Shown here: piece after piece, positions 2,002 to 62,242 of the stretch
How positions within the stretch are numbered: position 1 is the stretch's first letter
Layout of the letters: every line of letters begins with the position of its first letter
NCBI GenBank assembly: GCA_017455585.1
Contig: JAFSZU010000028.1
Span: 3,220-67,219 of the forward strand
Source: Bacteroidaceae bacterium
GTDB taxonomy: Bacteria; Bacteroidota; Bacteroidia; Bacteroidales; Bacteroidaceae
Length of the DNA: 64,000 nucleotides
Direction: 5' to 3'
Translations under genes and position numbers: made by a program
The notes under the pieces: generated by a model
What the model was told of the DNA's origin: nothing
What the model saw: only the letters and a program-made list of their open reading frames with translations
The model's database searches: none

Positions 2002-5000
2002 CCTCGCCGCGGGCTCGTTTCCGTTCGCTCTTGCGCATGGGCTGGCGATTGAGACGCCACACGGCATGGAAGAGGACGTAGCGGGGCGGGACATTGGTGT
2101 ATGTCTCGATGCGGCCTTGGGCGTTGAGGATGTTGGTGGTGCTGCGCAGCTGGCCGAGGATGTCGAAGCCGTCGAGCATCACGACGAGGTTGCCCTTGAA
2201 GAAGGGACGTGCAAGGCGGGCTTTCCACATCCAGTCGGTGGTGTTCATCGAGGCATCGGCATAGCCGCGGCGGGCATAGAGCGTCAGGTCGGTCGAAAGT
2301 TGCAGCTTCCACGGCAGGTTCAGCAGGACGGAGAAGGTGGTCTTGTAGTCGGCCACATGGAAGTCCGTGAAGTCCGTGCGCGGGCTGTGAAGCCACTGCC
2401 ACTTGGGCTCGCAGTCCAGCTTTAGGTTGCCCAGGTCGCCGAGGCTGTACCTGGCAATCAGCAGCGGGCTTAGGGTGGTGGTGCTGACGGTGCTGCGTTG
2501 CAGTTGTGTCGTACCCGTCAGATCTACACTGTGACGGTAGCCAACGGAAGGCACAACGTAGATGCGCAGTCGGCCTCGCTTGTCGAGCGGCAGGTTACCG
2601 ATGCCATAGCCTCCGATGAATTCCCAGTTACCATTGATGCTGTAGGGCTTGTAGGTTCGGACACCTGTCTCGGGGTTGTAAAGCTGGCTCATGACCGTGG
2701 CGTTCTGCGTCAGGACGAAGTCTATGCCGCCCGTAAGCTTTATCTGCTTATTCTTGTAGTTCTTCTGATGATGCACCTGCATGCTGTGGCGGTAGATATT
2801 GTGCAGGTCGGAGTTGCCTTCGGTGATGTTCAGCGGGTCGGTGGCGTCACGGATGTTGACGTAGTTGAGCATCGAGGGGGCGTCGGCCTTCAGGCGATAG
2901 GCGATGAAGAGGGCGTTGCCGTTGTCCCAGCGTCCCTCGGCATAGCTCCAGTCGGTGTCGAGGAGGACGGTGCGGTGCGTGATGAGCGTATCGACCTGTC
3001 CGCGCTGGTAGTGCAATGTGCGGTTGAGCAGACTTATAGGTAGGCGCTGGCTGATGCTCCAACTACCGTTCTTCATCTTGGGGAACCACCAGAGGAAGGG
3101 TCGCAGGGAGTAGTAATGCTCGGTCAGACGGTAGCTGTAGCTGTTGGCGGCGTCCATGGTCCGCTCATACTCGGCCACGGAGGGCAGCACTCCAACATCC
3201 AGTGTGTCCGTGCGCTCCATTCGGTCTAAGAGGAAGAGCGAGGATTCCCGCTGCGTGTTGCGGTATTCGTAGCTGAGGTGGGTTTCCAAGGAGAGGTTGC
3301 GGCGGATGGTCCAATGGTACATGCCCTGTACCCACAACTTGCCATAGCGGTCAGGGTGGTCGCGGAAGTACTGGTCGCCATAAAATGGCGACCCACCTGA
3401 CACTCGCTGGCGGTTGAAGCGGTCGTCGGCTTTCACGTCGTAGCAGGCATCGGTTTCGAATTCGAAGTAGTCGCTGGTGCCGTCCAGCTTGATGGCTGTG
3501 AAGGTCGAGAGGTTGGGATGCAGGGAATAACCGCTCCGCGAACCCTGTTGTTGGTTGGTATTGATGAGGGAGTCGCCGGCATTCCATGCTTGAGACTGGA
3601 AGGACGAACGGTTGTCCCATCGATGATAGTCAAAGCTGGGTCTGATGCGGAGCTGCACCTTCGGGAAGTTATACTGGAACTGGTTCCATGTGCTCACAGA
3701 GAGTGACTTGTCCTCCGCCACCGAGCGGCTATGCTCGCGGGTGTCGCCGCCGGGCAGGTAGTTCACGCGCTCCGTGACGGTTGTCACATCATTCGTCGTG
3801 TGCTCGGCGCGGACATTGCCCTCCAGCTTCCATTTCTTGTCGCGATCCTCAGTGAAATAGTCGATGCCGCCCTGTTGTCGCGTCTGCTGTCCCGGACTCA
3901 CGCCCATCCTGTAGCCACCGCTTTCACCCGGTCGCTCGCCGTCGTTCAGGTTGTTGACATTGAAGTAGGCCGCAAGCCGCGAGTGGTCCGAGAAACGCAT
4001 GGCCAAGAGGCGGGCGAGGTAACGAAGACCCTCTCCCCGCTCCACCTTTAGGGGGAGAGCCTCGATACGCTCTTTTGCTGTGCGCAGCCACTCCTCTCCC
4101 ACACGGGAGGGGTTGGGGGTGGGTCTGCCCATACCTCCTTCCACATTCACCAGCCATCCGATGCTATATTCCCTCTTCAGCTTCACGTCCATCACATACT
4201 GCTTGTCGTTCTCCAACTGCTGTCCGAGGAACTCGCTCTTGTCTCCATACTTGTCATAAATCTCTACCTGCTTCACCGTATAGGCTGGCAGGTTCTCAAG
4301 CATCACGCGGTTGTCACCACGGAAGAAGTCTTTGCCATTGAGCAGCAGGGCCTCCACGCGCTTGCCGTTGACGGTGATTTCGCCACCGTCCTTCAACTCC
4401 ACGCCCGGCAGCTGCTTCACCAGCGCATCGAGCATGGAACCCTCTGCCAACTGGAAGGCATCGGCGTTATAGACCACTGTGTCGCCACGATAGTAGAACA
4501 TCACCTTCGAGGCGGTGACAGTCACTTCACGCATCGTATGACGTACAGTCTTGTGCATCAGGACGGGTGGCAGTTCGCGCACGAACTCCCGTCTGCCCAC
4601 GTTGCTGAGGTTATAATCCACGTAGGTGGTGTCGTGCCCCTCGAAGGATGCCCGCAGGATGTAAGCCTCCTGACGGTGAGGCACTTCGAAATAGAAGTCC
4701 GATGTGTAGCCGCTATGATCCATATTCATCCAAAACGACTTGGCTTCACGTGTACTGAGCACGGTGCTGTCTCGTGTCATCAACGTTACCACAGCCCCTG
4801 GCAGGTCGTTGCGCGTCATGTTGTCTAATACCTTGCCGTGGATGCTCATCATCTCCTTGTCCTGCTTGCGCTGTACAAAAATTTGACGAAGAGCCTTCTT
4901 CACTTTCACCTTCACGGGTAGGCTCTTCGTCAGCCGCTCCACGGCATCAGGAACGTCTTCTTCCGCTACCGACTCCAACGTGACAGCAGCTTCCAATCCC

Positions 5001-5176
5001 AGCAGTTCATCCGTCACGAAAGTGATGGTCCACTCCTCCTGCTGCTCGTTGAGGCGGGCGAGGGCTTGGGAAAGTGAGAGATGACCCTCCCCCGAAAAGG
5101 GAGCGGTTACCTGTGCTGATATGGGGAATAAGGCCACGCACGCGTATATAATAATAAGGTATAGCAGTCGTTTCAT
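1994..5176 (-). CDS. outer-membrane beta-barrel receptor (TonB-dependent-receptor-like, cell-surface-signalling partner of ECF module 1)
   Basis: 1060-aa ORF. Signal peptide MKRLLYLIIIYACVALFPISAQ. N-terminal STN-like segment, then a CarboxypepD_reg-like segment (IHGKVLDNMTRNDLPGAVVTLM). Plug-like VTVTASKVMFYYRGDTVVYNADAFQLAEGSMLDALVKQLPGVEL, followed by a long barrel. It overlaps the anti-sigma gene by 4 bp. Paralogue of 6471-9716. Confidence 0.75.
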   Translation of the reverse strand: MKRLLYLIIIYACVALFPISAQVTAPFSGEGHLSLSQALARLNEQQEEWTITFVTDELLGLEAAVTLESVAEEDVPDAVERLTKSLPVKVKVKKALRQIFVQRKQDKEMMSIHGKVLDNMTRNDLPGAVVTLMTRDSTVLSTREAKSFWMNMDHSGYTSDFYFEVPHRQEAYILRASFEGHDTTYVDYNLSNVGRREFVRELPPVLMHKTVRHTMREVTVTASKVMFYYRGDTVVYNADAFQLAEGSMLDALVKQLPGVELKDGGEITVNGKRVEALLLNGKDFFRGDNRVMLENLPAYTVKQVEIYDKYGDKSEFLGQQLENDKQYVMDVKLKREYSIGWLVNVEGGMGRPTPNPSRVGEEWLRTAKERIEALPLKVERGEGLRYLARLLAMRFSDHSRLAAYFNVNNLNDGERPGESGGYRMGVSPGQQTRQQGGIDYFTEDRDKKWKLEGNVRAEHTTNDVTTVTERVNYLPGGDTREHSRSVAEDKSLSVSTWNQFQYNFPKVQLRIRPSFDYHRWDNRSSFQSQAWNAGDSLINTNQQQGSRSGYSLHPNLSTFTAIKLDGTSDYFEFETDACYDVKADDRFNRQRVSGGSPFYGDQYFRDHPDRYGKLWVQGMYHWTIRRNLSLETHLSYEYRNTQRESSLFLLDRMERTDTLDVGVLPSVAEYERTMDAANSYSYRLTEHYYSLRPFLWWFPKMKNGSWSISQRLPISLLNRTLHYQRGQVDTLITHRTVLLDTDWSYAEGRWDNGNALFIAYRLKADAPSMLNYVNIRDATDPLNITEGNSDLHNIYRHSMQVHHQKNYKNKQIKLTGGIDFVLTQNATVMSQLYNPETGVRTYKPYSINGNWEFIGGYGIGNLPLDKRGRLRIYVVPSVGYRHSVDLTGTTQLQRSTVSTTTLSPLLIARYSLGDLGNLKLDCEPKWQWLHSPRTDFTDFHVADYKTTFSVLLNLPWKLQLSTDLTLYARRGYADASMNTTDWMWKARLARPFFKGNLVVMLDGFDILGQLRSTTNILNAQGRIETYTNVPPRYVLFHAVWRLNRQPMRKSERKRARGEEP
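4026..4126. repeat. GC-rich hairpin element, double-ended copy, inside receptor-1 CDS
   Basis: AGACCCTCTCCCCGCTCCACCTTTAGGGGGAGAG ... TGCGCAGCCACTCCTCTCCCACACGGGAGGGGTTGGGGGTGGGTCT. Inverted AGACCC/GGGTCT termini and two hairpins. Confidence 0.75.
5083..5111. repeat. GC-rich hairpin element (short variant) in receptor-1 N-terminus
   Basis: GACCCTCCCCCGAAAAGGGAGCGGTTACC. Encodes ..APFSGEGH.. just after the signal peptide. Confidence 0.5.
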
Positions 5177-5793
5177 TGCGCGCCTCCTTTCTGCACAAAG
5201 ATGGTATCTCGCAGCTCTGTCAGTTGCAGCCCATCCAGCTCATTGAGGCTTTCGATGAACACTGCCAGGCTGTCCTCTTGGTTCCACTTGGTGTGAATAC
5301 GGAGTCCTTTCAGTTGCTCATTACCGAAGGACACGGCTTTGCCATAATGCTGGCTCACAATCGCCAGCATGGAGTCCAAGCGGACATCGGCAAAAAGGAT
5401 GGGTGTCCCCCGTAGCCCCCCGGCGGGGGGCGCTTGAAGGCTGCCAACCTTTTCATCCTCCGCCGGGGGATTATAGGGGGCCAGGATTTGTATGCTTGCC
5501 CACACCAACCCACCGAGGAAGACGGCAGCGAGGAAGACGGCGGCAATCTTGCGATAGAAGACCCATCCCGCCCTTCGGGCACCTCTCCCGTGATAGAGGG
5601 GAGTGGCTGCGCACAGTTTCTCCCCATTGATGACTTCCTCCTTCACCAGCATCAGGATAGCATGGCGGTCGGTGGCGAGTTCGTCGGTGCAGTCATCGGC
5701 GAGGAGGTAGCTGACGAGGCGGCGCTCTTCATCGGCCGTCGTCTCGCCGCGGAAGAAACGGTCGCGGAGTATCAAGGCATCATTCTCTTTCAT
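5173..5793 (-). CDS. anti-sigma factor (single TM, FecR_C/DUF4974-like periplasmic domain), module 1
   Basis: Lies between the ECF sigma and receptor genes. TM helix IAAVFLAAVFLGGLVWASIQIL. C-terminal FADVRLDSMLAIVSQHYGKAVSF..IHTKWNQEDSLAVFIESLNELDGLQL resembles the FecR C-terminal domain. Confidence 0.65.
   Translation of the reverse strand: MKENDALILRDRFFRGETTADEERRLVSYLLADDCTDELATDRHAILMLVKEEVINGEKLCAATPLYHGRGARRAGWVFYRKIAAVFLAAVFLGGLVWASIQILAPYNPPAEDEKVGSLQAPPAGGLRGTPILFADVRLDSMLAIVSQHYGKAVSFGNEQLKGLRIHTKWNQEDSLAVFIESLNELDGLQLTELRDTIFVQKGGAQ
5559..5616. repeat. GC-rich hairpin element inside anti-sigma-1 CDS
   Basis: AGACCCATCCCGCCCTTCGGGCACCTCTCCCGTGATAGAGGGGAGTGGCTGCGCACAG. Confidence 0.75.
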
Positions 5794-5805
5794 AGTTGTA
5801 TGGAG

Positions 5806-6315
5806 TTAAGGATTGTCTGGATGTTCATGGAAATAGGAACGTAGTTGCTGGCGGGCGCGGGTGAGGATGGAGCGTGTGTTGGCAGGCGTCTCGCCCAGGA
5901 CGAGGGCGATGTCACGGGTCGTCATGTCGTCGAAGTACTGCATCGTGATGGCACTGCGTGCCTTGGGCTTCAGCGTGGCGAGTGCGAGGCGCAAGCGGCG
6001 CAGGTCGGCGTGCAGCTGTTCGCGCAGTTCCGTGTCCAGCTCGTCGGAGAGGCCATAGACCTCGCTTTCCTCAAGAGATACTGTTTCAGGGTGGCGGCTG
6101 CGCAACAGGTTCAGGCAGTGGTTCCTCAACGTCAGCAGGAAGAAACCCTCGGGCGACACCATGTCATCCAGCCGCTCACCTTGTCGCCACAGTCGCAGGA
6201 AAGTCTCCTGCACGGCGTCCTCGGCCTCCTGCCAATTGCCCAGCAGTGCCAGCGCCGTGCGCATTAGTCGCGTCCGCAGCGGCCAGTATTGTCGTTCAAA
6301 TTCGAGTTGGTTCAT
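5806..6315 (-). CDS. ECF (sigma-70 family) RNA polymerase sigma factor, module 1
   Basis: 169 aa. Region 2 EDAVQETFLRLWRQ..FFLLTLRNHCLNLLR. Region 4 HTH MTTRDIALVLGETPANTRSILTRARQQLR. Confidence 0.85.
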   Translation of the reverse strand: MNQLEFERQYWPLRTRLMRTALALLGNWQEAEDAVQETFLRLWRQGERLDDMVSPEGFFLLTLRNHCLNLLRSRHPETVSLEESEVYGLSDELDTELREQLHADLRRLRLALATLKPKARSAITMQYFDDMTTRDIALVLGETPANTRSILTRARQQLRSYFHEHPDNP

Positions 6316-6470: not shown

Positions 6471-9400
6471 TTATCTTTTCTTCGGGTTCTTGTTGAAGTG
6501 CCAGACGGCGTGGAGCATGACGTAGTGGGGGAGGGAGCGGTACCAGGTGACGGTGCGGCCCTGGGCATTGATGCTGTAGTCGATGGGCGACAGCTGGTGC
6601 AGGAGGTCGAAGGCCTGGAGACTGAGGATGAACCTGCCCTTTGCCAGGGACTGGCTGAGGGAGGCGTTGACAACGAAGTTGTTTCGGTTGAGGTCGGCTG
6701 TGCCGTAGCCGCGACGGCTGAACATGGTGCCGTCGGCGGCGAGGGTGAGGCCTCCGAACCTGGTGCCCCAGAGGGCGGGTGTGGTGTAGGTGGCTTCGAG
6801 TCCGTACTGGAAGTCGAGGGCGGAAAGGGAAGACCCACCCCCTGCCCCTCCCGTGAGGGAGGGGAGTGGCTGCGCAGAGTGCCGCCAGTTGATTGACCCC
6901 ACAGCGCGGACGTTCAAGGTCTTGCGGTTGTAGCGGATGTTCGCTCCGCTGTTGAGACCGAGGGTATTCACGGTGTTGACACTGCTCTCGTTTTCGCCCT
7001 CCAGCAAGGCGTGGTCCTTGGAATGATTCCAGTCTGCACCTGCGTCGAGATGCCACGTCCAGTAGCGCTTCTCGCCGATGGTGCGGTTGGTGCCGAAGTT
7101 GGCGCGGGCGGCGTAGGCGCCGCTGATGTTCATGGGTTTGTAGGTGCTGATGCCGGTGGCGGGGTCGTAGGTCAGGGACTGTGCGATGTCGCGATGGTGG
7201 TAGTCGAAGGAGGCAGAGAGGTTGTAGGAGTCGTTTCGCGGCCCGGTGCTGTCATAGTATCTGATGTTGAAGGTCGTCTTTGCCGTGGGTTTCAGGTCGG
7301 GGTTGCCCAGCTTGACGATGAGGGGCTGGCTGTCGTCGCGGAAGGTGATGCGGTCCAGCAGGAGGGTGCGCTCCTGGCTGAAGCCGACATTGAAGTTGAG
7401 GTCTCGCCGCCCGCCTTTCCACACGTTGCGATAGCGGAACGTGGCTTTAGGCAGGAACACGGTCTGGCGTGCCAGCGTGTCCAGCGTGCCGCGGTGGTAG
7501 TGGAGGCGTTCGCCGGACAGCGGCGTGCCCACCTCCAGCGCAAACCGCTGGTAGCTGATTTTGGCGTGGAACTGCGGATGCACATAGTAGGCGTTCTTGT
7601 AGAACATGAGACCCACGTCGTTGCTCCAGTCGCGGTCGCGGCTGTCATAGGAGTTCGCGGCATCGGTGATGGCGGTCAGGGCGTCAAGCTGCGAGGGGAG
7701 GAGGGGGGACAGGGAGGTGTCCTCGGCGGGAAAACCGCCGAGCACCAACGCATCGGGCTGTGAAGGACTGCCGGGCACCAACGGGGAGGTACCTTCGGGA
7801 GCGCTCGGCTTTGCCGCTTCGCTTTGCGAAGAACCCTCGGGAACGGTAACGGGGTGGTAGAGGTAGTCGCGGTTGTGCTGGCGGCGGCTGAAGAACCCGT
7901 CGCTGATGCCTATGCGCAGGGCGTTGGGCAGTTCCCATTGGTATCCCATGCGGCCGAGAAACCATGTGCTGCGGTTGAAGAGCGTGTTGGAGTTGTGGGT
8001 GGCTCCCCCATTCTCCTCCGAGGGGGTGGCCGTTCTTGTTTCATACCTTGTCGCACGCTCGCTCTCGTCGTTGCTGTGTTCAAAGTGGAAGAAGTATTCT
8101 AAATGCTTCTTGTCCTTGCCCACATTGAAGGATCCCTGAACATCGAATATAGCATTCCACGCCCGCCCCTCGCTGACGCCCACGGTGCGCTGGCTGACGG
8201 TGAGGCTGTCGCTCCACTGGTCGAAGGCGGAGTTGAACGAGCCGTCGCGACTGGCGTAGCTGTAACGGGCCAGGGAGTAGAGATAGAAGGGCTTGGACAG
8301 CGACAGCGTGTTGTTCAGGCTGAGCCTGCGGTTGCCCGCGCGGTTGAAGGACTCGGTGACGGACGTGGGTGTGCAGCCGTCGATGAACTGTTCGCGGCGC
8401 TGCTGCACGGTCTGCTCGTCGGTCGAAGAGGTGTAATCAGCGCTGAATGTCTCCTTCAGTTTGTCGCCCTTGGTCTGGTAGTTGAGTTCTCCGGCCACGC
8501 TGCGCGTCGTCAGCAGCGATCGCGGCTGGCGCGCCGGGTTCCACTGGTCGGACTGCCCGATATGGCGACCCTCGTTGACGTTATTCGCGTTGGCCAGGAG
8601 CGTGAAGCGCAGACGGTCGGTGAAGCCGAGGAGGAAGCCACGGGCAAGCCACCGCTCCTGAGTGCCTCCTGCCGCTTCTACATTGCCGATGTAGCCTTGG
8701 CTGTATTCGTCCTTCAGGTTCACGTCCATCACATAGCGGCGCGGCTCCACGTCGTAGCCCAGTGCCACGCTCTTGTCGGTCTGCTTCTCATAGACCTTCA
8801 GGTTCTTCACGGTGTAGTACGGCAGGTTCTCCAACAGCACCTTCTTGTTGCCGCCGAAGAACGAGCGGGAGCCGAGCAGCAGCTCATCCACCTTGCGCCC
8901 GTTGACGAATATCTCGCCGTCGACGTTCATGGTCACGCCCGGCAGCTGGCGGATGAGGTCGTCGAGCATGGAGCCGTCGGGCAGCCGGAAGGCCGTGGCG
9001 TCGTAGATGAGCGTGTCGCCGCGGTAGAACATCTTGATCTTGGTGGCCGTGACGGTCACCTCACGCATGGTCTTGGTCGTACCGCGGCGCATCTTCAATG
9101 TGGGCACTTCCACACCGTCCTCAGGCAAGGGACGGGGGATGGTCACCCGTTGCCACACGTCGTCGTAGCCCTCCTGGCTGGCGCGGACGAGGTACTGCGA
9201 CTCGGCGGCACTCACTTCGGCGTTGAACTGTGCCCGAACCATCTTCATACCGCTTCCGTAGAAGACAACGATTTGTGCGGAATCCACCACCACGCTGCTG
9301 TCCGCGCGCAGGATGGAAACCTTTGCATAGGGCAGCGGCATCTCCAGGAAACCGTCCTCCACACAGCCTGAGAGGTGCACCGTCTTGCCTGTGAGGTCTC

Positions 9401-9716
9401 GTTCAGGCTTGTACTGTACAAAGATCTGCTTGCCCCTCGTCTTCACCTTCACGGGCTGTCCCTTGCATACCCGCGCCACCGCCTTGTCGGCTCTGAGATT
9501 CTTGGACGGCCGTGCCGAGACGCGCAGGTGTTCCAGATTGTTGTGGATGAAGTGGATGGCGTATTCTGTCTGCGCTGTTGCCAAAGAGTCAAGGGCAGTG
9601 GCGAGGGAAGACTCTTCCCCCGCCCTCCCTTGTAGGGAGGGAGAGGTTACTTGTGCGGATAGGGGAAATAACGCTGTCGCAAGGACATATATAATAAGGT
9701 ATAACCGTTTCATCAC
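6471..9716 (-). CDS. outer-membrane beta-barrel receptor (TonB-dependent-receptor-like), module 2
   Basis: 1081-aa paralogue of 1994-5176 with the same layout: signal peptide MMKRLYLIIYVLATALFPLSAQ and plug-like VTVTATKIKMFYRGDTLIYDATAFRLPDGSMLDDLIRQLPGVTM. Confidence 0.75.
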   Translation of the reverse strand: MMKRLYLIIYVLATALFPLSAQVTSPSLQGRAGEESSLATALDSLATAQTEYAIHFIHNNLEHLRVSARPSKNLRADKAVARVCKGQPVKVKTRGKQIFVQYKPERDLTGKTVHLSGCVEDGFLEMPLPYAKVSILRADSSVVVDSAQIVVFYGSGMKMVRAQFNAEVSAAESQYLVRASQEGYDDVWQRVTIPRPLPEDGVEVPTLKMRRGTTKTMREVTVTATKIKMFYRGDTLIYDATAFRLPDGSMLDDLIRQLPGVTMNVDGEIFVNGRKVDELLLGSRSFFGGNKKVLLENLPYYTVKNLKVYEKQTDKSVALGYDVEPRRYVMDVNLKDEYSQGYIGNVEAAGGTQERWLARGFLLGFTDRLRFTLLANANNVNEGRHIGQSDQWNPARQPRSLLTTRSVAGELNYQTKGDKLKETFSADYTSSTDEQTVQQRREQFIDGCTPTSVTESFNRAGNRRLSLNNTLSLSKPFYLYSLARYSYASRDGSFNSAFDQWSDSLTVSQRTVGVSEGRAWNAIFDVQGSFNVGKDKKHLEYFFHFEHSNDESERATRYETRTATPSEENGGATHNSNTLFNRSTWFLGRMGYQWELPNALRIGISDGFFSRRQHNRDYLYHPVTVPEGSSQSEAAKPSAPEGTSPLVPGSPSQPDALVLGGFPAEDTSLSPLLPSQLDALTAITDAANSYDSRDRDWSNDVGLMFYKNAYYVHPQFHAKISYQRFALEVGTPLSGERLHYHRGTLDTLARQTVFLPKATFRYRNVWKGGRRDLNFNVGFSQERTLLLDRITFRDDSQPLIVKLGNPDLKPTAKTTFNIRYYDSTGPRNDSYNLSASFDYHHRDIAQSLTYDPATGISTYKPMNISGAYAARANFGTNRTIGEKRYWTWHLDAGADWNHSKDHALLEGENESSVNTVNTLGLNSGANIRYNRKTLNVRAVGSINWRHSAQPLPSLTGGAGGGSSLSALDFQYGLEATYTTPALWGTRFGGLTLAADGTMFSRRGYGTADLNRNNFVVNASLSQSLAKGRFILSLQAFDLLHQLSPIDYSINAQGRTVTWYRSLPHYVMLHAVWHFNKNPKKR
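6831..6878. repeat. GC-rich hairpin element inside receptor-2 CDS
   Basis: AGACCCACCCCCTGCCCCTCCCGTGAGGGAGGGGAGTGGCTGCGCAG. This is a near-consensus copy. Confidence 0.8.
7719..7750. repeat. CGG hairpin type 1 in receptor-2 CDS
   Basis: GTCCTCGGCGGGAAAACCGCCGAGCACCAACG. Confidence 0.65.
7828..7854. repeat. PEG box (encodes PVTVPEGS) in receptor-2 CDS
   Basis: GAAGAACCCTCGGGAACGGTAACGGGG. Confidence 0.7.
9609..9650. repeat. GC-rich hairpin element in receptor-2 N-terminus
   Basis: AGACTCTTCCCCCGCCCTCCCTTGTAGGGAGGGAGAGGTTAC. Confidence 0.65.
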
Positions 9717-9737
9717 TCAATCAATTTTAGAAGGTGA

Positions 9738-9775
9738 CTACTCCTTCCCTTTGAGGGAAGGTGAGGGGAGGGTCT
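9738..9775. repeat. GC-rich hairpin element forming the last codons and stop of anti-sigma-2
   Basis: CTACTCCTTCCCTTTGAGGGAAGGTGAGGGGAGGGTCT. The CTA at 9738-9740 is the TAG stop on the minus strand. Confidence 0.65.
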
Positions 9776-10319
9776 TAACAAACACAGTGTCTCTTTCTTC
9801 CGTCACCTGTAAACCGTCGAACTCATTGAGCATGGTGATGAACGTCGCCAGAGAATCCTCGCGGTCCCACGTGATGGTGAAGCGCAGGTTGCGCGATGCC
9901 TCGTCGAGGAACTGCACCTGCTGCTTGTAGTGCGCCGCCACCACAGAGAGAATGCTGTCCAAGCGGACGTCGGAGAAACGGACGGGCGAAGCCCCCCGTA
10001 GCCCCCCGGTGGGGGGCGTTTGAAGACTGCCAACCTTTTCATCCCCCACTGGGGGATTATAAGGGGTCAGGATTTGTATGCTTGCCCACGCCAGCGCGCC
10101 GAGGAAGACGGCGGCGATGAGGATGGCAGCCATGCGGCGGTAACGATTGAGTCTAAGGAGGAACGGATTTTCGGATGCAGTCCCCCTCTCTTGCGTCCTC
10201 AGTTCCAGAGACTTCTCCATCAGTTGATCTACAAAGTCCTCGGAGTGTGGTGACGATGGCGGTGTGATGCGGCGGAGGGCATCACGCAGGTCGGAATGAG
10301 TGTTGTTCATTGTTCTCAA
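9738..10319 (-). CDS. anti-sigma factor (single TM, FecR_C-like), module 2
   Basis: Paralogue of 5173-5793 (AAILIAAVFLGALAWASIQIL; FSDVRLDSILSVVAAHYKQQVQF). The start could be the ATG at 10310 (MNNTHSDL). It overlaps the 3' end of the sigma gene. Confidence 0.6.
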   Translation of the reverse strand: MRTMNNTHSDLRDALRRITPPSSPHSEDFVDQLMEKSLELRTQERGTASENPFLLRLNRYRRMAAILIAAVFLGALAWASIQILTPYNPPVGDEKVGSLQTPPTGGLRGASPVRFSDVRLDSILSVVAAHYKQQVQFLDEASRNLRFTITWDREDSLATFITMLNEFDGLQVTEERDTVFVKTLPSPSLKGKE

Positions 10320-10914
10320 TGTTTAGGATAAGTGAGTAGAGTTTGCGGCGCAGACGATACAGGCGGCTGTAGAGGGCATCTGCTTCAGTGCCGAGGATGT
10401 AGGCTATGTCAGCCACGCCACGTTCCTCGGCATACCGCATGTAGAGCAGGTTGCGCTCCTCGTCCGTCAGGGTGGCGAGGGCTCGTGTCAGGCTCTCCAC
10501 GCGGTCGGGGCGTCCTGTGGAGAAAGCGGCATCCAGCTCCGCCTCCGATACGTCGGCCAGTTCAATGGTGTGTCTGGCAACAGCTGGCGCATCTATGGGC
10601 AACGTCGGCACTTGTGGATGCAACCGCAAGTGATTCAGGGCTGTGTTATAGGCGATGCGACTGAGCCACGTCGGCAGCGAGGCACGCGCGGGGTCATAGC
10701 TGTCGAGTCCCTGAAATACCTTCAGCAAAGTATCCTGCAATACCTCCTCTGCCTCGGCGGCATGGTGTATCATGCCGCGGATCAGCGTCAGCAGTTGCTG
10801 CCCGTAGGCATCGACCAGCGTCTGGCAGGCACCGCGGTCACCAGCCCTGGCGGCACGTATCATCTGTATGTCATCTGTCTGTGTCATTCTACTCATATAT
10901 ACAACCTGCATCAT
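10282..10914 (-). CDS. ECF (sigma-70 family) RNA polymerase sigma factor, module 2
   Basis: Region 2 AEEVLQDTLLKVFQGLDSYD..WLSRIAYNTALNHLR. Region 4 ERGVADIAYILGTEADALYSRLYRLRRKL. The exact start is uncertain because there are several N-terminal Met codons. Confidence 0.8.
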   Translation of the reverse strand: MMQVVYMSRMTQTDDIQMIRAARAGDRGACQTLVDAYGQQLLTLIRGMIHHAAEAEEVLQDTLLKVFQGLDSYDPARASLPTWLSRIAYNTALNHLRLHPQVPTLPIDAPAVARHTIELADVSEAELDAAFSTGRPDRVESLTRALATLTDEERNLLYMRYAEERGVADIAYILGTEADALYSRLYRLRRKLYSLILNIENNEQHSFRPA

Positions 10915-15216: not shown

Positions 15217-15233
15217 TCTTTTAATAAGGTTAC

Positions 15234-15270
15234 TACTCCCCTCGGCTCTTGGAGAGGTGGGGGTGAGGCT
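15234..15270. repeat. GC-rich hairpin element, intergenic (nanA / transporter)
   Basis: CTACTCCCCTCGGCTCTTGGAGAGGTGGGGGTGAGGCT. Confidence 0.65.
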
Positions 15271-36340: not shown

Positions 36341-36501
36341 AGACCCACTCCCAACCCCTCCCGTGAGGGGAGGGGAGAGTTTGCAGTTAATATAGAAAAA
36401 TGAACTAAAAGATTATTAACCCTATAATATGACCCAGTAACTTCTCAACTCTCAAGCGCCAGTCGCGCCCCTCCCTCACGGGAGGGGTTGGGGGTGGGTC
36501 T
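36341..36501. mobile_element. MITE-like intergenic element: two inverted GC-rich hairpin modules flanking ~80 bp AT-rich core
   Basis: Left module AGACCCACTCCCAACCCCTCCCGTGAGGGGAGGGGAGAGTTTGCAG (36341-36386). Right module GCGCCCCTCCCTCACGGGAGGGGTTGGGGGTGGGTCT (36465-36501). It starts 1 nt after the stop of 34859-36340 and ends 8 nt before ATG 36509. Confidence 0.75.
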
Positions 36502-53503: not shown

Positions 53504-55357
53504 TCAGCTCTTCAGCCCCACGGTCTTGTTGAAGACAAGGTGGTCGGGGGTGGAATCGGTGTCAATGTTGAAGTAGCCGATGCGCTGGAACTGGAGGTAT
53601 GTCAAAGCGGGCATGTCACGCACAAACTTCTCGATGTAGCAGTGCTGGAGCACGTGCAGCGAATCGGGGTTCATCATCTGCTGCATGGCCTCGATGGCAG
53701 AGAGGCCCTCGCCCTGCAGGCGTGCCAGTTCGTCACGCGGGTTCTCCACCTGCCACAACCGTTCATACATACGCACCTCGGCGGGCAGACAATGTCCGCA
53801 ACTGAGCCAGTGCAGGGTCTTGCCCTTGATCTTGCGGTCGGCACCGGGCAGTCCGCTGCGCGTCTCGGGGTCGTAGGTAGCATAGATGGTGGTCACGTTG
53901 CCGTCGGCATCCTCGTCGAAGGGGTGCTCCTCGTCGCACTTGATGATGTAGGCGTTCTTCAGGCGCACTTCCTTGCCGGGAGCCAGGCGCATGAACTTCT
54001 TCTCGGCCACCTTCTGGAAGTCGTCGCGCTCTATCCATAGCTCACGTGAGAACTCGATAGTATGTGTGCCGTCCTCCGGGCGTTCAGGGTTGTTGACGGC
54101 TTCCAACTCCTCGACCTGTCCCTCCGGGTAGTTGGTAATCACGAGTTTGACAGGGTTGATGACCGCTGCCACACGGGTGGCGCGCTGGTTCAGGTCCTCG
54201 CGCACGGCACTCTCCAAGAGAGCGAAGTCGTTCAAGGCATCGTATGTGGTGTAGCCAATCTTCTGGATGAAGTTGACAATGCTCTCGGGCGAATAGCCAC
54301 GACGGCGGAAGGCGCAGATGGTGGGCATACGCGGGTCGTCCCATCCGCTGACGAAGCCGTTCTTGACCAGTGCCAGCAGGTTGCGCTTGGACATGAGCGT
54401 GTAGTTGAGGTTCAGCTTATTGAATTCTGTCTGGCGCGGGCCTTGATAAGTTGAAAGTTGAGAGTTCTCCAAGTGTGGAGCGACCAAGGTCGAGCGGAAA
54501 GTTGAAAGTTGACTACCGCTCTCTGCCTGGCTACCGCAATCGGCAATCCACTCTCGCATCCACGTGACGAAGAGGTCATACAAGGGTCGGTGCTCCACAA
54601 ACTCCAGCGTACACCATGAGTGGGTGACACCCTCTAAGTAGTCGCTCTGTCCGTGAGTGAAGTCATACATGGGATAGGCGTTCCAGCGGTTGCCTGTCTT
54701 CAGGTGCGGGATGTTCAACACGCGGTAAATCAGCGGGTCGCGGAACAGCATATTGGGGTGAGCCATGTCTATCTTGGCACGTAGCACAAGGGTGCCCGGC
54801 TCGCACTTGCCACTGTTCATGTACTCGAACAGGCGCAGGTTCTCCTCCACGGGACGGTCACGGAAGGGGCTGTTGGTGCCCGGAGAGGTGGTCGTACACT
54901 TCTGCTGGGCAATCTGCTCGCTTGTCTGTTCATCCACGTAGGCACGCCCCTGCTTGATGAGCCACACGGCGAAGTCCCACAACTGCTGGAAGTAGTCGCT
55001 GGCATAATAGACATTGGCCCACTGGAAGCCCAGCCACTTGATGTCCTGCTCAATGGCTTCGATGTACTCGGTGTCCTCCTTCTGCGGGTTGGTGTCATCG
55101 AAGCGCAGGTTACACGTGCCGCCATACTTCTTGGCCAGTCCGAAGTCCAGTGCGATGGCCTTGGCGTGGCCGATATGCAGGTAGCCATTGGGTTCAGGCG
55201 GGAAGCGTGTCTGGAACCTTCCGCCGTTCTTGCCTTCGGCCAGGTCGTTGATTACTTTCTGTTCGATGAAGGAGGCAGCACGCCCGGCCTCACCCCCCGT
55301 CCCCCTCTCCAAGGGGCGAGGGGGAGTAGTTACATTTGAAGAGTTGTTTTCGTTCAT
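53504..55357 (-). CDS. glnS: glutamine--tRNA ligase
   Basis: Class I HIGH motif (PEPNGYLHIGHAKA), LMSKR (KMSKS-like), and a conserved C-terminal anticodon-binding region. The start is set at ATG 55357 (MNENNSS). It contains repeat-derived inserts (see findings). Confidence 0.9.
   Translation of the reverse strand: MNENNSSNVTTPPRPLERGTGGEAGRAASFIEQKVINDLAEGKNGGRFQTRFPPEPNGYLHIGHAKAIALDFGLAKKYGGTCNLRFDDTNPQKEDTEYIEAIEQDIKWLGFQWANVYYASDYFQQLWDFAVWLIKQGRAYVDEQTSEQIAQQKCTTTSPGTNSPFRDRPVEENLRLFEYMNSGKCEPGTLVLRAKIDMAHPNMLFRDPLIYRVLNIPHLKTGNRWNAYPMYDFTHGQSDYLEGVTHSWCTLEFVEHRPLYDLFVTWMREWIADCGSQAESGSQLSTFRSTLVAPHLENSQLSTYQGPRQTEFNKLNLNYTLMSKRNLLALVKNGFVSGWDDPRMPTICAFRRRGYSPESIVNFIQKIGYTTYDALNDFALLESAVREDLNQRATRVAAVINPVKLVITNYPEGQVEELEAVNNPERPEDGTHTIEFSRELWIERDDFQKVAEKKFMRLAPGKEVRLKNAYIIKCDEEHPFDEDADGNVTTIYATYDPETRSGLPGADRKIKGKTLHWLSCGHCLPAEVRMYERLWQVENPRDELARLQGEGLSAIEAMQQMMNPDSLHVLQHCYIEKFVRDMPALTYLQFQRIGYFNIDTDSTPDHLVFNKTVGLKS
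54449..54513. repeat. AGTTGAAAGTTGA-type direct repeats inside glnS CDS
   Basis: aagttgaaagttgagagtt (54449-54467) and aaagttgaaagttgac (54498-54513). These are the reverse complement of the 33264 repeat type. Confidence 0.7.
55287..55329. repeat. GC-rich hairpin element in glnS N-terminal extension
   Basis: GGCCTCACCCCCCGTCCCCCTCTCCAAGGGGCGAGGGGGAGTAG. Encodes ..TPPRPLERGTGGEAG.. Confidence 0.7.
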
Positions 55358-55919: not shown

Positions 55920-56573
55920 TTAATCTTTAATGTTTTGCAAATACTGAGCATAGCGGGCGATGTACTTGCCCAGGATGTCAAACTCCAGGTTCACCACGGT
56001 TCCCTCCTTGATGCTGTGGAAGTTGGTGTTGTCAAAGGTGTAGGGGATGATGCAGACAGCAAAAGCCCCTTTCCCGGTTCCTCCTGTGGGGGGGAGAGAC
56101 ATGGTGGGTCGGCAGACGGTCAGCGACACGCCATTGACACAGACAGAACCTTTATCTACGGTGAAGTAGCCGCGGGCGACCATCTCGGCGTCTGCATCAT
56201 ACTCAAAGGTGAACTCGTGGCTGCCCGCCTGGTCTTCCACACGGATGCAGCGCGCCGTCTGATCCACATGCCCCTGCACGATGTGGCCGTCCAGACGGCC
56301 TCCCATCTGCATGGAGCGTTCCACGTTCACTTCGTCGCCCACTTGCAGCAGACCCAGATTGGAGCGTTCCAGTGTCTCGCGCATGGCTGTAACCACATAG
56401 GTTCCAGCATCGAGGTCGATGCGCACCACGGTGAGGCACACGCCGTTGTGTGCAATGCTCTGGTCAACCTTCAGCTCGCTGGTGAAGGGACAACGGAGCG
56501 TAAAGTGCAGGTTGTCCTGCTCACGTTCTATAGCCACCACAGTGGCCGTGCTTTCTACAATTCCTGAGAACAT
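55920..56573 (-). CDS. ribE: riboflavin synthase (alpha chain)
   Basis: MFSGIVESTATVVAIE...SIAHNGVCLTVV...VNVERS...GHIVQGHVD...GVSLTV..IPYT. This is the duplicated lumazine-binding domain pattern. Confidence 0.85.
   Translation of the reverse strand: MFSGIVESTATVVAIEREQDNLHFTLRCPFTSELKVDQSIAHNGVCLTVVRIDLDAGTYVVTAMRETLERSNLGLLQVGDEVNVERSMQMGGRLDGHIVQGHVDQTARCIRVEDQAGSHEFTFEYDADAEMVARGYFTVDKGSVCVNGVSLTVCRPTMSLPPTGGTGKGAFAVCIIPYTFDNTNFHSIKEGTVVNLEFDILGKYIARYAQYLQNIKD
56062..56113. repeat. GC-rich element (degenerate) inside ribE CDS
   Basis: AGCCCCTTTCCCGGTTCCTCCTGTGGGGGGAGAGACATGGTGGGTCGGC. Confidence 0.5.
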
Positions 56574-58368: not shown

Positions 58369-58409
58369 TTTGAAGTGTCTTTGTTGTGGATTTGGTTGAA
58401 TTGCCGCCG

Positions 58410-58417: not shown

Positions 58418-58696
58418 CGGAAAAAGCTTGTAACAAACGAGGAATTTTGGAAATTCTTTGCAAGCAAAGCGTCCTTTTAGGCCGAGCGAGCGCAATTCGG
58501 GCTAAGAATATGCAAAAACGGGGTCGAATGAGTACGTCCGTCCATTATTTAACATCTTTTATGAGTAATCTTTCCGAGCGTTTTGCGTTATATAGACAGA
58601 ACGTTTTCGATAAGCCATGAGCAGAGCCAAACTTGCATGAACAATACCATGGCGAGAAAATGAAGGATGCAATCCTGTGACTTAAAGTGAAGACTT

Positions 58697-59641: not shown

Positions 59642-59697
59642 ATATATTTTTCATAAAGCAGTTATTTAGTAAACAGAAAGACCTATAGGCATCTTGG

Positions 59698-59736
59698 CCT
59701 CACTGCGTCGCGATGACACGGTGGGGCTTTTCTTTT
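59698..59736 (+). terminator. intrinsic terminator after sigma::TonB_C fusion gene
   Basis: CCTCAC-N17-GTGGGG followed by CTTTTCTTTT. Confidence 0.6.
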
Positions 59737-59962
59737 AACATCCCATTCACGGCAAACGGGCAGACTATTGGAACGAAATCCAATACACCGACATCTACAT
59801 TGAAGGACAGACCGCCACAGAATACCACACCATGCCGCACGGTTTCCAAGGTGAAAACGATTATCTGGTGGAGAAGTTTGCGCACACCAGAGAAGGTGCT
59901 TTTTGTGTCTTTTGGAAATCAAGGCACCCATCGTACAAGAGGGGTCATCTAAATAGTCTATA

Positions 59963-62242
59963 TCAGATAGTTTCTTTTTTGGGTTCCCGATACTCCGAAG
60001 GGGTGATGCCGAACATCTTCTTGAACTGCGTGGAGAAGTAGCGGGGAGTGGTGAAGCCTACGCGCTCGGAGATCTCGACGATGGAGAGGTCGGTGTCGGA
60101 TAGTAGGACGGCAGCACGTTTGAGGCGGACGCTGCGGATGAAGTCGTTGGGCGTGATGCCCAACATAGTCTGCATGCGCTTGTAGAGGTTGGTGCGTCCG
60201 AGAGCCACGTCGCGGGCCAGTTGGTCAACGCTGTATTCCGTGTTGTCGAGGTTCTGTTCTATGGCTTTCAGAAGCTGACCGACAAGGGCTTCTTCCTCGC
60301 TGTTGACACCAATCTTGGAGGCATCGATGCGTACGTTATCCACGAATTGCTTGCGGGCTTGCTCGCGCAATTCAAAGAGGTGGTTGACACGCTCCTCGGC
60401 TTCGGCTTCGAGGCGGGCCCGCTTCTTCTTCAAATAGAATTCTATAAGCCCTATAAGCCCCATTAGCCCTATAAGCCCATAAATCATCTTCATCCACCAG
60501 GTGAGCCACCATGGCGGGCGGATGGTGAAGGGTATGGACAGGGCTTCGCCCCATTCGCCTCCTGCGACAGAGGCTTGTGCCTCGAAGACGTATCGACCTG
60601 GCTGCAGAGCGTTATAGGAGGCCGTGGCAAGTCCCGTGCCGCTGCTGTCGTAGAGCCAGTCGCGGTCGAGACCAACAAGACGATAGCGGTAGATGGTATG
60701 TTCAGGAGCTGCGTAGTTGAGGGCGGAGAAACGGAAGGTGAGGTAGTTCTGGGAGTGGGGGAAAAGCCCCCTCCCGACCTCCCTTAAGGGGGAGGGGACT
60801 GGCTGCCCGTTAACCTCGAAGCTGACGAGGTGGACGGGAAACGTGGTCGAATCAGCTACGAACCACTCCGGACGAATGGTAACGAGACCCATGGTGTGCT
60901 GCACGAACACCAGGCGCCCATCGTCCAAGAGGGTTGCTGCCCGCTCATCCATCGAAACCTGTGGCACGCCGTCAGAAAGACCCAAATTCAGAATGGGAAA
61001 TGGCTCGTGAGCTCCAACCCTGCTGATTCCGCTTGATGAGCCTACCCATATATTGCCCTCCTTGTCCTCCACAAGGCTACGTATGCAGTTGTTAGCTAAC
61101 CCCTCCATACGAGTAACTTCAGCACAATTATGAATTATAAATTGTGAATTATGAATTAAAAAGAGTCCATTCTGTGTTCCGAGCCACAATCGTCCCTTGC
61201 TGTCTCGCAGGGCGCAGTTGTATTTTTCTGTCCAACGTGCTATCTCGCTTGCTGGGGCAAACTCGTTGATGCTGTCGTGCTTGACATCAAGCAGGAAGGC
61301 ACCGTTCTGGGAATACACCAACACATCATTCTCCGTCAATGGGCAGGCTCCCACAATCCAGCGATAGTTGGCCTCTATCTGTGGCAGTTTGCGGTTTAAG
61401 ACATCGAACGAAAGGGCTTCCGGGTCGAAATAGCCGAGGTTGTTGCCGTTGTTACAAAGCAACAATCGGCCGTCAGGCAACTCTGTGATAAACACAATCC
61501 GATTATGTACGAAGCCTGGGACGTTGTCTTGTCCGTAGCGTATGGCCCTGCTCTCAGGCCCCAGGAAGTCGGACTCGGAACGGCAGTAGAGACCATTCAT
61601 GGTGCATTGCCATGCTCGCCCCTGAGAGTCCTGCATATAGCGGGCAGCATGGAGCAGGCTATCATTGTGTCCGATATAGATGGCCTGCGGACGCGGCGGA
61701 CGGACGTAGAACAAGCCGTTGCCACGAGTGCCTATCCAGCGACCACCCTGTCGGTCGGTCATAGCATGTGCCACCTTCGACGCAGTTCCCAGACTATCAG
61801 CTAACTGCTGCCAAGAATCATCAGGACTCTCGTAAGTTCCCTCTCCGGCTACCAACTGGTTCAGTTGTTCTGACGTAAGGCGCGCTTCCACATCATAACG
61901 AAATGCCCTCTCACGCGCATCGAACAAATAAAGGTGATAGAAGTCGCGCAGCCACAGCAGCGAGTCACCTTGCCACAGATGGGCATAGCCGCCAAAATGT
62001 TCCAGCCGATATGTGCGACTGAGGTCACACGAGATTTCCCGGAATGTCTGACCGTCGAACATACAGAAAGCGCCCTCGCAGTTCACCAACACCTGCCCGT
62101 TCGGCAGTTCCACCACCTGGCGCACTTCGTTCGTGATGAGTCCGTCGCCCACCGTATAGTGATGCCACACGTTCTGTCCGAAAGACATAAGTGTGCAGCC
62201 GAAAGATAACAATGGAATAACAATGTATAGGAAGCGTCTCAT
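59963..62242 (-). CDS. one-component transmembrane sensor-regulator: periplasmic beta-propeller/Y_Y_Y domain + TM + AraC-type HTH (no kinase or receiver)
   Basis: Re-started at ATG 62242 (MRRFLYIVIPLLSF). Reg_prop-like repeats. Y_Y_Y block (YRYRLVGLDRDWLY..GRYVFEAQA). TM helix. C-terminal AraC HTH (ISERVGFTTPRYFSTQFKKMFGITPSEYR). Confidence 0.75.
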   Translation of the reverse strand: MRRFLYIVIPLLSFGCTLMSFGQNVWHHYTVGDGLITNEVRQVVELPNGQVLVNCEGAFCMFDGQTFREISCDLSRTYRLEHFGGYAHLWQGDSLLWLRDFYHLYLFDARERAFRYDVEARLTSEQLNQLVAGEGTYESPDDSWQQLADSLGTASKVAHAMTDRQGGRWIGTRGNGLFYVRPPRPQAIYIGHNDSLLHAARYMQDSQGRAWQCTMNGLYCRSESDFLGPESRAIRYGQDNVPGFVHNRIVFITELPDGRLLLCNNGNNLGYFDPEALSFDVLNRKLPQIEANYRWIVGACPLTENDVLVYSQNGAFLLDVKHDSINEFAPASEIARWTEKYNCALRDSKGRLWLGTQNGLFLIHNSQFIIHNCAEVTRMEGLANNCIRSLVEDKEGNIWVGSSSGISRVGAHEPFPILNLGLSDGVPQVSMDERAATLLDDGRLVFVQHTMGLVTIRPEWFVADSTTFPVHLVSFEVNGQPVPSPLREVGRGLFPHSQNYLTFRFSALNYAAPEHTIYRYRLVGLDRDWLYDSSGTGLATASYNALQPGRYVFEAQASVAGGEWGEALSIPFTIRPPWWLTWWMKMIYGLIGLMGLIGLIEFYLKKKRARLEAEAEERVNHLFELREQARKQFVDNVRIDASKIGVNSEEEALVGQLLKAIEQNLDNTEYSVDQLARDVALGRTNLYKRMQTMLGITPNDFIRSVRLKRAAVLLSDTDLSIVEISERVGFTTPRYFSTQFKKMFGITPSEYREPKKETI
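60442..60478. repeat. 10-bp tandem repeat (CTATAAGCCC) encoding part of the sensor's TM helix
   Basis: ctataagccctataagccccattagccctataagccc. Encodes GLIGLMGLIGLI. Confidence 0.65.
60765..60806. repeat. GC-rich hairpin element inside AraC-type sensor CDS
   Basis: AGCCCCCTCCCGACCTCCCTTAAGGGGGAGGGGACTGGCTGC. Confidence 0.7.
61126..61157. repeat. 32-bp AATTATGAATT-type module inside AraC-type sensor CDS
   Basis: aattatgaattataaattgtgaattatgaatt. Encodes ..LIHNSQFIIHN.. Confidence 0.7.

Follow-up and report, generated by a model that had tools for sequence, protein, structure and literature searches.

The DNA analysed here is a 64,000-nucleotide stretch (the window) of contig JAFSZU010000028.1 from the Bacteroidaceae bacterium assembly GCA_017455585.1 (positions 3,220 to 67,219). 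It comes from an uncultured rumen bacterium of the Prevotella lineage with about 57% G+C, and homologues of its genes are labelled as metagenome-assembled genomes (MAGs) of Bacteroidaceae, Prevotella or Prevotellaceae obtained from the rumen and gut of cattle, sheep, goat, deer, yak and buffalo. The window is dotted with copies of a short GC-rich hairpin repeat, most of which reside in frame within protein-coding genes. A first-pass annotation, made from the letters alone, had placed this module at 16 loci, and it is present at all of them; an nhmmer profile built from the aligned copies recovers 19 units at the 16 loci and essentially no other match in the window. The loci are as follows, with E-values from nhmmer and residue (aa) numbering according to the host open reading frame (ORF).

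4026-4126, inverted doublet of about 100 nt with units 4026-4070 (+) and 4081-4126 (-), E = 4e-5 and 5e-10: in frame in the outer-membrane beta-barrel protein 1994-5176 (-), aa 351-384 (RPTPNPSRVGEEWLRTAKERIEALPLKVERGEGL)
5084-5114 (+), weak degenerate copy, E = 0.08: protein 1994-5176 (-), aa 21-31 (AQVTAPFSGEG), after the signal peptide
5559-5615 (+), single unit with a small extra hairpin, E = 7e-6: in frame in the FecR-type anti-sigma protein 5173-5793 (-), aa 60-79 (LCAATPLYHGRGARRAGWVF), just N-terminal of the membrane helix
6831-6876 (+), near-consensus unit, E = 1e-10: in frame in the outer-membrane protein 6471-9713 (-), aa 946-961 (SAQPLPSLTGGAGGGS)
9609-9652 (+), unit with a GGTTAC tail, E = 3e-7: protein 6471-9713 (-), aa 21-35 (QVTSPSLQGRAGEES), after the signal peptide
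9731-9775 (-), unit forming the last approximately 11 codons and the TAG stop of the FecR-type protein 9738-10319 (-), which ends ..KTLPSPSLKGKE*, E = 1e-5
14263-14360, inverted doublet with units 14263-14301 (+) and 14314-14360 (-): NanM part (Kelch propeller) of NanM-SSS 12325-15210 (-), aa 284-316
15103-15149 (+), unit: in frame in NanM-SSS, aa 21-36 (NDSTPLPTREGQGGRS), directly after the signal peptide
15226-15270 (-), intergenic unit between nanA (15296-16243, -) and the start of nanM-SSS at 15210, E = 4e-5
36341-36501, inverted doublet in the intergenic region that separates a DUF5687 gene (stop at 36340) from an ABC ATPase gene, its two units lying about 80 nt apart across an A+T-rich spacer, E = 2e-8 and 1e-7
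38333-38371 (-), unit: in frame in the S9 peptidase 37352-39859 (-), aa 497-509 (RPTPDPARDGGEK), E = 1e-6
39792-39835 (+), unit of ambiguous coding status covering aa 9-23 at the 5' edge of the S9 peptidase ORF
47775-47815 (+), unit in the 5' extension of the maximal ORF of a GT2 glycosyltransferase, 46677-47843 (-), aa 10-23
55288-55337 (+), unit with a GTAG-TTAC tail: in frame in the N-terminal tail of glutaminyl-tRNA synthetase (GlnRS), 53504-55357 (-) (SNVTTPPRPLERGTGGEA)
56064-56103 (+), degenerate unit: in frame in riboflavin synthase RibE, 55920-56573 (-), aa 157-170 (TMSLPPTGGTGKGA)
60767-60810 (+), unit: in frame in an AraC-type hybrid sensor, 59963-62242 (-) (NGQPVPSPLREVGRG), between the Reg_prop repeats and the Y_Y_Y domain, E = 1e-5

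Alignment of the copies in one orientation yields a consensus unit of the form AGACCCACCCCC-NN-CCCCTCCC-GTGA-GGGAGGGG-AG followed by a variable tail, in which CCCCTCCC and GGGAGGGG form a stem of 8 bp around a loop of 4-5 nt. The conserved core spans about 36-37 nt, complete units 36-48 nt and doublets about 100-160 nt. The end at AGACCC is base-sharp, with about 2 bits per position within the unit and about 0 in the flank, where only a weak preference for an A preceding AGACCC is observed. At the opposite end the tails fall into the classes GGCTG(G)CGC, CCTGCGG, GTAG(A/T)TAC and GTAAAATGC. The 'head' that the first-pass annotation had assigned to the module does belong to the units, but it is variable and comprises several classes, the conserved end being AGACCC instead. 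The description as a single module likewise needs amending at three loci (4026-4126, 14263-14360 and 36341-36501), which are inverted doublets with the outer termini AGACCC...GGGTCT, starting with AGACCCnCnCCC and ending with GGGnGnGGGTCT, while single units possess one such end; two of the loci originally listed, 5083-5111 (E = 0.08) and 56062-56113, hold degenerate copies.

Chance does not account for the repeat. The hairpin pattern CTCCCCTCCC-N4-GGGAGGGG, with at most two mismatches, has seven matches, on both strands and at five loci, compared with 0.00 expected from 100 dinucleotide shuffles of the window. A by-product of high G+C content is also excluded, as the neighbourhoods of the GlnRS gene in 80 related species (roughly 20 kb each) mostly lack a match, including several with 55-58% G+C. 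A few Prevotella MAGs, one of them from a human (Hadza) gut, contain related copies. The unit corresponds to no described RNA family, since searching the entire window against Rfam with gathering thresholds gave no match. The intergenic doublet 36341-36501, folded as single-stranded DNA, gives a long hairpin of -34.6 kcal/mol (z = -7.2).

The copies are reproducible. Exact-protein look-up of the NanA-like gene located the same region in four independent metagenome assemblies, which align to the window with 99.4-99.8% identity over up to 21 kb and with three small gaps at most. These assemblies cover window positions 5.3-26.2 kb, including 13 units, without any large indel. Assembly artefacts, a concern raised with the initial description, can therefore be set aside, since different assemblers and samples reproduce the 13 units. 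No presence/absence polymorphism of units was found among these four assemblies, so that recent activity could not be shown.

The peptides encoded by the units are of low complexity and resemble linkers, other variable low-complexity inserts occur in the same proteins, and shuffled C-rich and G-rich halves also fold fairly well. These features would suit a scenario in which no element was ever moved or copied and look-alike DNA arose as Pro/Gly-rich linkers emerged time and again through biased composition or selection for flexible loops. Such convergence is, however, hard to credit, because it is the nucleotide sequence that is conserved, whatever the frame and orientation, and this extends to noncoding DNA: one and the same 36-nt core is read as RPTPxPSRxGGE, THPQTPPVREGS, LPSLTGGxGGGS or SPLPHGRGxGVGL, depending on the copy. 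Neither the sharp AGACCC boundary nor the lack of the unit over 20-kb stretches of sister genomes of equal G+C would be expected from convergent linkers.

The residence of the units in genes was evaluated gene by gene, by comparison with orthologues, paralogues or solved structures, because a synteny comparison of the 4-15 kb cluster in sister species failed (the sister-species loci L005-L007 retain only the nanA/nanM-SSS/epimerase core). All host ORFs contain domains of their respective families, which at internal units lie on both sides within the same ORF. As had been proposed, most loci place the repeat in frame within genuine coding sequence; at least 11 of the 16 are coding, and the 12 coding loci that pass a comparison test are all in frame and stop-free. 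Many orthologues and paralogues have empty sites rather than the same segments at the same positions, and the length gained at filled relative to empty sites is a multiple of three. Of the two properties proposed for checking, an indel equal to the element and a multiple of three, only the second is observed, the net gain being shorter than the element. Translations of the window units and 233 units from elsewhere show that both orientations and several frames are used, and a stop occurs in just one of the six frames of the consensus, a TGA contributed by the GTGA loop, as had been noted.

NanM-SSS provides the largest comparison. Among 120 orthologues (63-99% identity, 701-1027 aa), both element segments are alignment blocks missing from roughly half. 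A codon alignment with the empty-site orthologue of L005 shows a gain of 33 nt right behind the signal-peptide cleavage site and of 90 nt inside the Kelch propeller, and orthologues lacking the 15103 unit read AQDTSP-YHRFN; a peptide spanning a junction of host and element in the window protein is ...SLIKTHPQTPPVR.... Both L006 and L007, with proteins about 86% identical, also possess the propeller doublet; as its hairpin has partly broken down in L007, the insertion is an old one. Family peptides are also found at sites that are empty in the window, such as NAQPLPSLTGGTEGGS around aa 836, SNSPRGGEDS around aa 826 and, at the C-terminus, SPSPKGEGA, while orthologues of NanM-SSS and the S9 peptidase have LPSLTGGxxGGS, LTGRAGGES, PRPLERGTGGE and ALPLTGERGEGL elsewhere in their sequences. 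These additional positions indicate independent insertions. In L005, where both nanM-SSS sites are empty, a family doublet (12708-12852) directly follows the nanM-SSS stop and runs into the called start of the GlcNAc 2-epimerase gene.

In RibE the gain is exactly 30 nt (10 codons) relative to nine of 11 aligned orthologues, the other two not being fully tabulated; a partial remnant persists in L009. Riboflavin synthase homologues in the PDB have a 10-residue gap at this position, between SLTV and the next conserved block, and the junction peptide of the window protein is ...CRPTMSLPPTGGTGK.... In GlnRS, no ATG, GTG or TTG is found from the element to the conserved FIEQ motif, and homology to Escherichia coli GlnRS begins 2 residues past the element. 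A related copy occupies the same site in L008, L013 and L020, the ATG of L008 being closely preceded by in-frame stops, and most other species have a short, empty N-terminus. The GlnRS of L022 carries a doublet of the same family internally.

At its doublet, the outer-membrane protein 1994-5176 exceeds by a net 31 residues both the paralogue 6471-9713 and a set of about 25 homologues, where the sequence is NVEAAGG-TQER-WLARGF; the composite formed by this doublet recurs in metagenome loci. Its second copy, at 5084-5114, corresponds to a gain of only 3-4 residues in the alignment, and its membership of the family is doubtful. In 6471-9713, the unit at 6831 exchanges about 9 residues for 16 (EGRMYDFST becoming AQPLPSLTGGAGGGSS); orthologues read WRHSE-G-RMYDF-S-T-LNALDF, and one of them (P0392) has several units at this place. 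The unit at 9609 adds a net 7-8 residues where orthologues read AQD-LTFKDE-SLADVL. The anti-sigma protein 5173-5793 has its FecR_C domain downstream of the unit in the same ORF, and the paralogue 9738-10319, which lacks the segment, aligns from residue 80 on. In 9738-10319 itself, the final 11 codons and the stop come from a unit, the paralogue ending in ..FVQKGGAQ*. The internal unit of the S9 peptidase lies between the propeller and the catalytic domain; it is present in some orthologues (RPTPNPSRNGGEKA, RPTPDPSRQGGEK) and absent from others (LQALPDG--RLLMERHD). In the AraC-type sensor the net gain is 6-7 residues relative to homologues. The window sensor reads PVPSPLREVGRGL at this site, and the 72% identical homologue P0241 reads LLPSITGGDGGGS; the N-terminal GlnRS site similarly holds TTPPRPLERGTGGEA in the window and TAPSLTGRAGGES in L008 (3270-3320) and L013. 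Such differing versions at one site could possibly reflect a hot spot, conversion from copy to copy or drift of the frame.

Structurally the insertion sites are of a few kinds: the start of the mature protein behind a signal peptide, the tail at either terminus, strand-connecting turns and interdomain linkers. In an AlphaFold2 model of NanM computed from a 77-sequence alignment, the propeller is predicted with a pLDDT (predicted local distance difference test) of about 90, and residues 18-37 and 287-312, which coincide with the element segments, are coil with a pLDDT of 31-35, the latter segment (about 31) connecting two propeller strands. Together with the RibE insert, which falls in a gap between conserved blocks, this agrees with the loop location anticipated when the repeat was first described. 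The same loops have been struck repeatedly in different orthologues, sometimes by another subfamily or in another frame.

A subset of copies is less clearly genic. The unit 15226-15270 and the doublet 36341-36501 are intergenic; the spacer holding the former is left uncalled in the gene calls of L001-L004, and the loci L102, L126, L174 and L186 have flank and spacer in common with the latter and provisionally look orthologous to it. The initial count of only two intergenic loci is thus roughly right, although not exact, since two or three further loci, among 39792, 47775 and the weak copy at 5084, are not demonstrably coding. Most orthologues of the S9 peptidase start with MK-RLALFLL..C, and a GTG in the tail of the 39792 unit would give MRLFLLLLIIAIMTAC, a normal lipoprotein signal, whereas the upstream ATG would translate the element. 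The GT2 domain of Pfam begins at aa 64 of its maximal ORF and the 47775 unit, upstream of it, is probably a leader or precedes the true start; both units may be 5' leader rather than coding sequence. If all copies were of this kind, that is leaders, spacers or terminator-like hairpins, their genic appearance would merely reflect maximal ORFs drawn through stop-poor GC-rich DNA. The two intergenic loci, the plausible downstream starts at 39792 and 47775, and a similar caveat expressed for repeats at the N-termini of ORFs in other bacteria (PMC3733652) speak for such a view. For most loci it is already refuted, eight of them lying between conserved domains or blocks of one protein, three between a signal peptide and a mature domain, and the GlnRS copy having no start codon downstream; as a general account it is therefore exceedingly improbable.

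Copies outside the window show the same behaviour. An exact-pattern scan retrieved six viral-contig loci from IMG/VR (L088-L093) and 120 metagenome loci, mostly from rumen, which together amount to 1.04 Mb and contain 267 units. A unit was considered deep within a gene when no stop interrupts it and at least 100 stop-free codons lie on either side; this strict criterion replaced codon- and hexamer-based classifiers, which had low sensitivity and called only about 50% of random positions coding. By this measure, 89 of 233 units (38%) are deep in long ORFs, compared with 49% of random positions in the same DNA, and the ratio of elements to random positions is about 0.6-0.8 in all three classifications. 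The deep-genic units comprise 47 in sense and 42 in antisense orientation and use all frames. A composite of about 100 nt resembling the two genic doublets of the window recurs, encoding ...SSDSEALPLTGERGEGL, a peptide that is also present in NanM and S9 orthologues.

Units that lie in genes need not appear in the protein. Bypassed GC-rich mobile hairpins are found in coding regions of some yeast mitochondria ('byp' elements), and gene 60 of phage T4 is decoded with a bypass, so that RNA excision or ribosome bypass may be considered. Removal of either kind would need no constraint on frame or stops, yet all 12 compared loci are in frame and stop-free, for which the chance would be about (1/3)^12, and old copies decay in frame, as the RibE remnant of L009 illustrates. 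Excision or bypass is thus very unlikely, and the segments are probably translated, because the frame kept at 12 of 12 compared coding loci would be pointless if they were skipped.

The explanation that we favour, with a probability of roughly 0.75, is that a non-autonomous hairpin repeat, read as REP/REPIN-like or MITE-like (see below), has multiplied in an uncultured rumen clade of the Prevotella lineage and that its genic copies have been filtered by selection, translated and eroded. Copies would arise at many places, as single units or inverted doublets, through an enzyme or a copying process that presumably makes the units mobile. A genic copy would persist provided that the net change is a multiple of three, that the frame in which it is read is free of stops, and that the addition of 7-34 residues rich in Pro, Gly, Ser, Thr, Arg and Glu falls at a tolerant position of the fold; the second of these would be easily achieved, because one half of the unit is C-rich and the other G-rich. 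The segments would then be translated within the protein and inherited vertically, mostly as neutral passengers, while being slowly eroded by substitutions and in-frame deletions.

Several observations weigh against this explanation. Translation is argued from frame conservation only, the ORF-based genic test is indirect, and the 1-Mb sample, chosen with an exact pattern, draws on many species. A hairpin of one unit exceeds shuffles in stability only modestly (z about -2), since any C-rich plus G-rich sequence folds well. No gene for a Y1/RAYT transposase (RAYT, REP-associated tyrosine transposase) was detected by phmmer in about 13,600 ORFs of at least 70 aa from 2.6 Mb of loci (best E-value 0.13), a weak negative because the queries, TnpA of IS608 and the E. 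coli RAYT, were approximate sequences, and no transposase gene is present among the annotated ORFs of the window. No direct repeat that could represent a target-site duplication is seen at the junctions of filled sites. The net gain is always 8-27 nt below the recognizable element (at 56064-56103, 14263-14360, 15103-15149 and 6831-6876), and the empty RibE target already reads CGACCCAC, like an element terminus. The short net gain and the RibE target are a poor fit to classical transposition. Three or four junctions hint, short of proof, at what may be replacement of the target or copying assisted by homology.

A more far-reaching version of this idea is that the repeat is no ordinary transposase-driven one but spreads, in chromosomal as well as phage genes, by short-homology copying that replaces a few codons of the target without duplicating it and yields one sharp and one ragged end; this is a tentative proposal that we consider on balance unlikely. 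If true, the repeat would serve the Prevotella of rumen and gut as a proteome-wide source of new disordered loops, chiefly in envelope proteins, and would parallel, in bacteria, the exonised repeats. Gradual accumulation by point mutation, in the manner of DNA-uptake sequences, was rejected, as the copies add length relative to empty sites.

The units might also be kept because they benefit the host, either as structural signals in mRNA or DNA or as useful disordered loops and linkers of envelope proteins. Of the ten host proteins encoded in the window, eight belong to the envelope or are secreted, the same loops have been hit repeatedly in different orthologues, the doublet 36341-36501 is apparently conserved across several metagenome loci, and genic copies, with hairpins as good as those of nongenic ones, are as intact as copies outside ORFs. 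That last comparison is, however, biased, as only well-preserved copies pass the search threshold; tolerance alone predicts hot spots equally well, the hosts include the cytoplasmic housekeeping proteins GlnRS and RibE, and sequences at shared sites drift and are deleted. Retention for host benefit is accordingly improbable as the general rule.

Among known systems, the Rickettsia palindromic elements (RPEs) described by Ogata et al. (2000) and summarized in PMC10969869 and PMC3733652 are in-frame palindromic repeats in unrelated genes, and they had aptly been named as the precedent at first sight; what had been missed is that intragenic repetitive extragenic palindromes (REPs) are already described in other phyla, namely in Opitutus terrae, Thauera and Xanthomonas (Di Nocera et al., 2013; PMC3733652). 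In the same survey the Bacteroidetes contributed CGTC repeats only (PMC3733652). Full-text literature searches found no report of such elements in Prevotella or Bacteroidota, in agreement with the initial impression that no equivalent was known there. Like RPEs, the present units are palindromic repeats that lie in frame in numerous genes unrelated to each other, housekeeping genes among them, with the host ORF left intact, and the two systems have in common several families, a large genic share, sites presumed to be tolerated by the fold and the lack of a known dedicated transposase. They differ in that RPE-1 is about 100-150 bp long and provides one conserved peptide, whereas here a core of 36-37 nt is used in all frames and either orientation, and in that the host, a gut anaerobe of a different phylum, is free-living and not an obligate intracellular alphaproteobacterium. 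This separation from RPEs is by length and host, and not by alignment with RPE-1 to RPE-10.

The REPs of the GTAG and CGTC types are stem-loops of 20-40 nt with a stem of 6-9 bp, multicopy, and organized as singletons and inverted dimers, as is the present repeat. Some of them lie within ORFs (20-30 aa), many at N-termini, with tRNA synthetases among their hosts, and the caveats on N-terminal annotation apply to both. On the other hand, REPs are mostly extragenic, downstream of genes, whereas the genic share found here nears that of random positions; moreover, the 5' GTAG or CGTC tag is missing, the conserved end being AGACCCACCCCC, and CGTC is not conserved. Membership of the GTAG-REPs, suggested by the GGAGTAG tails, was rejected because the tag stands on the wrong side of the hairpin and in one subfamily only: GTAG is confined to a single tail class (GGGGAGTAG), 3' of the hairpin.

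The three inverted doublets of the window, of which 36341-36501 folds into a long hairpin, are reminiscent of REPINs (inverted REP doublets) and their RAYT transposases (Bertels and Rainey, 2011; PMC3116915), as are the singlets that occur alongside them and the apparently vertical inheritance of the family within the lineage. REPINs are extragenic, however, the doublet spacers here vary by locus, and no RAYT gene was found in the 2.6 Mb of loci with the approximate queries used. Finally, transposable elements of the miniature inverted-repeat type (MITEs; PMC10969869) are likewise short and non-autonomous, have terminal inverted repeats, which the doublets also possess, and are read through in host ORFs. 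Here, in contrast, filled sites have no target-site duplication, no transposase gene of a parent insertion sequence is seen among the annotated ORFs of the window, and most copies are single half-units without bounding terminal inverted repeats. What sets the family apart is a genic share close to that of random positions, the use of all frames and an abundant gut and rumen host.

Thirteen of the 19 units crowd into 11 kb (window positions 4026-15270), which contain two sigma/anti-sigma/outer-membrane-protein cassettes and the nan operon; this crowding could result from local spread or from tolerance of envelope proteins. The cassettes, at 1994-6315 and 6471-10914, are tandem paralogues, each with a sigma factor of the extracytoplasmic function (ECF) type, an anti-sigma protein of about 190-206 aa with FecR_C as its only domain, and an OMP_b-brl_3 protein of about 1060-1080 aa. 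Their outer-membrane proteins are about 35% identical and their anti-sigma proteins 63% identical in the C-terminal halves. Upstream, positions 1-1990 have a G+C content of 43% in comparison with about 57% elsewhere and contain short ORFs only, with a fragment of a BlaI/MecI-like repressor at 1424-1669 (-); this looks like a degraded or foreign segment.

The viral contigs L088-L093 all contain units, and one of them was obtained from a sample that also yielded a nearly identical copy of the window. In L090 and L092, an ORF of 381 aa includes AKVSTPLPPREGSGVGL in frame, and what appears by eye to be its homologue in L093 carries GLTPDPSPKGEGSV at another site; in L089 a copy is located at the 5' edge of a portal-protein ORF. 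Annotation of the element-bearing viral-contig ORFs with PHROGs gave one weak match, to a portal protein, so that the viral status of the other contigs is that assigned by the IMG/VR classification.

At least two further repeat modules of the window are also in frame and recur elsewhere, so that the phenomenon in this lineage is broader than one family, and these further families appear to behave likewise in this clade. Compared with the E. coli enzyme, GlnRS is longer by about 40 aa at a second place, 54440-54565 (residues 277-318, approximately, in the maximal ORF), and this insertion looks like another in-frame repeat family; its DNA includes two CAACTTTCAACTT motifs, and related stretches occur at positions outside GlnRS in L005, L008, L167, L179 and L200. 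By coordinate arithmetic only, the main-family doublet in the GlnRS of L022 lies in apparently the same loop. A module encoding VAREKEIDLMSISPSDRGLSPKPRT at 47690-47775, in the 5' part of the GT2 maximal ORF, adjoins the hairpin unit there; it is found in frame in a NanM orthologue (P0053) and an outer-membrane-protein orthologue (P0397), with DNA copies in L150, L184 and L185. In addition, the S9 peptidase (approximately 39380-39560, aa 101-160) and the outer-membrane protein 6471-9713 (approximately 7664-7850, aa 622-683) have long insertions rich in Ala, Ser, Thr and Pro that are missing from most orthologues; the string VTVPEGSPEG recurs in unrelated proteins of the clade, with examples in the S9 orthologues P0138 and P0157, and a variant is present in the outer-membrane protein of the window.

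For users of metagenome-assembled genomes, these inserts disturb start-codon calls, orthologue clustering at fixed identity and quality filters based on length. Conversely, the units can serve as strain or lineage markers, and the copies in viral contigs may help to link phages to their hosts. Bacteria of the Prevotella lineage dominate the rumen and many gut communities, and in this clade one repeat family alters the length of many proteins, from the essential enzymes GlnRS and RibE to outer-membrane proteins and sensors, at nearly the frequency expected for random positions. In-frame palindromic repeats, documented mainly in Rickettsia and a few other lineages, are now extended to the Bacteroidota, and the clade constitutes a natural experiment in the tolerance of proteins to inserted loops and in the recruitment of such loops.

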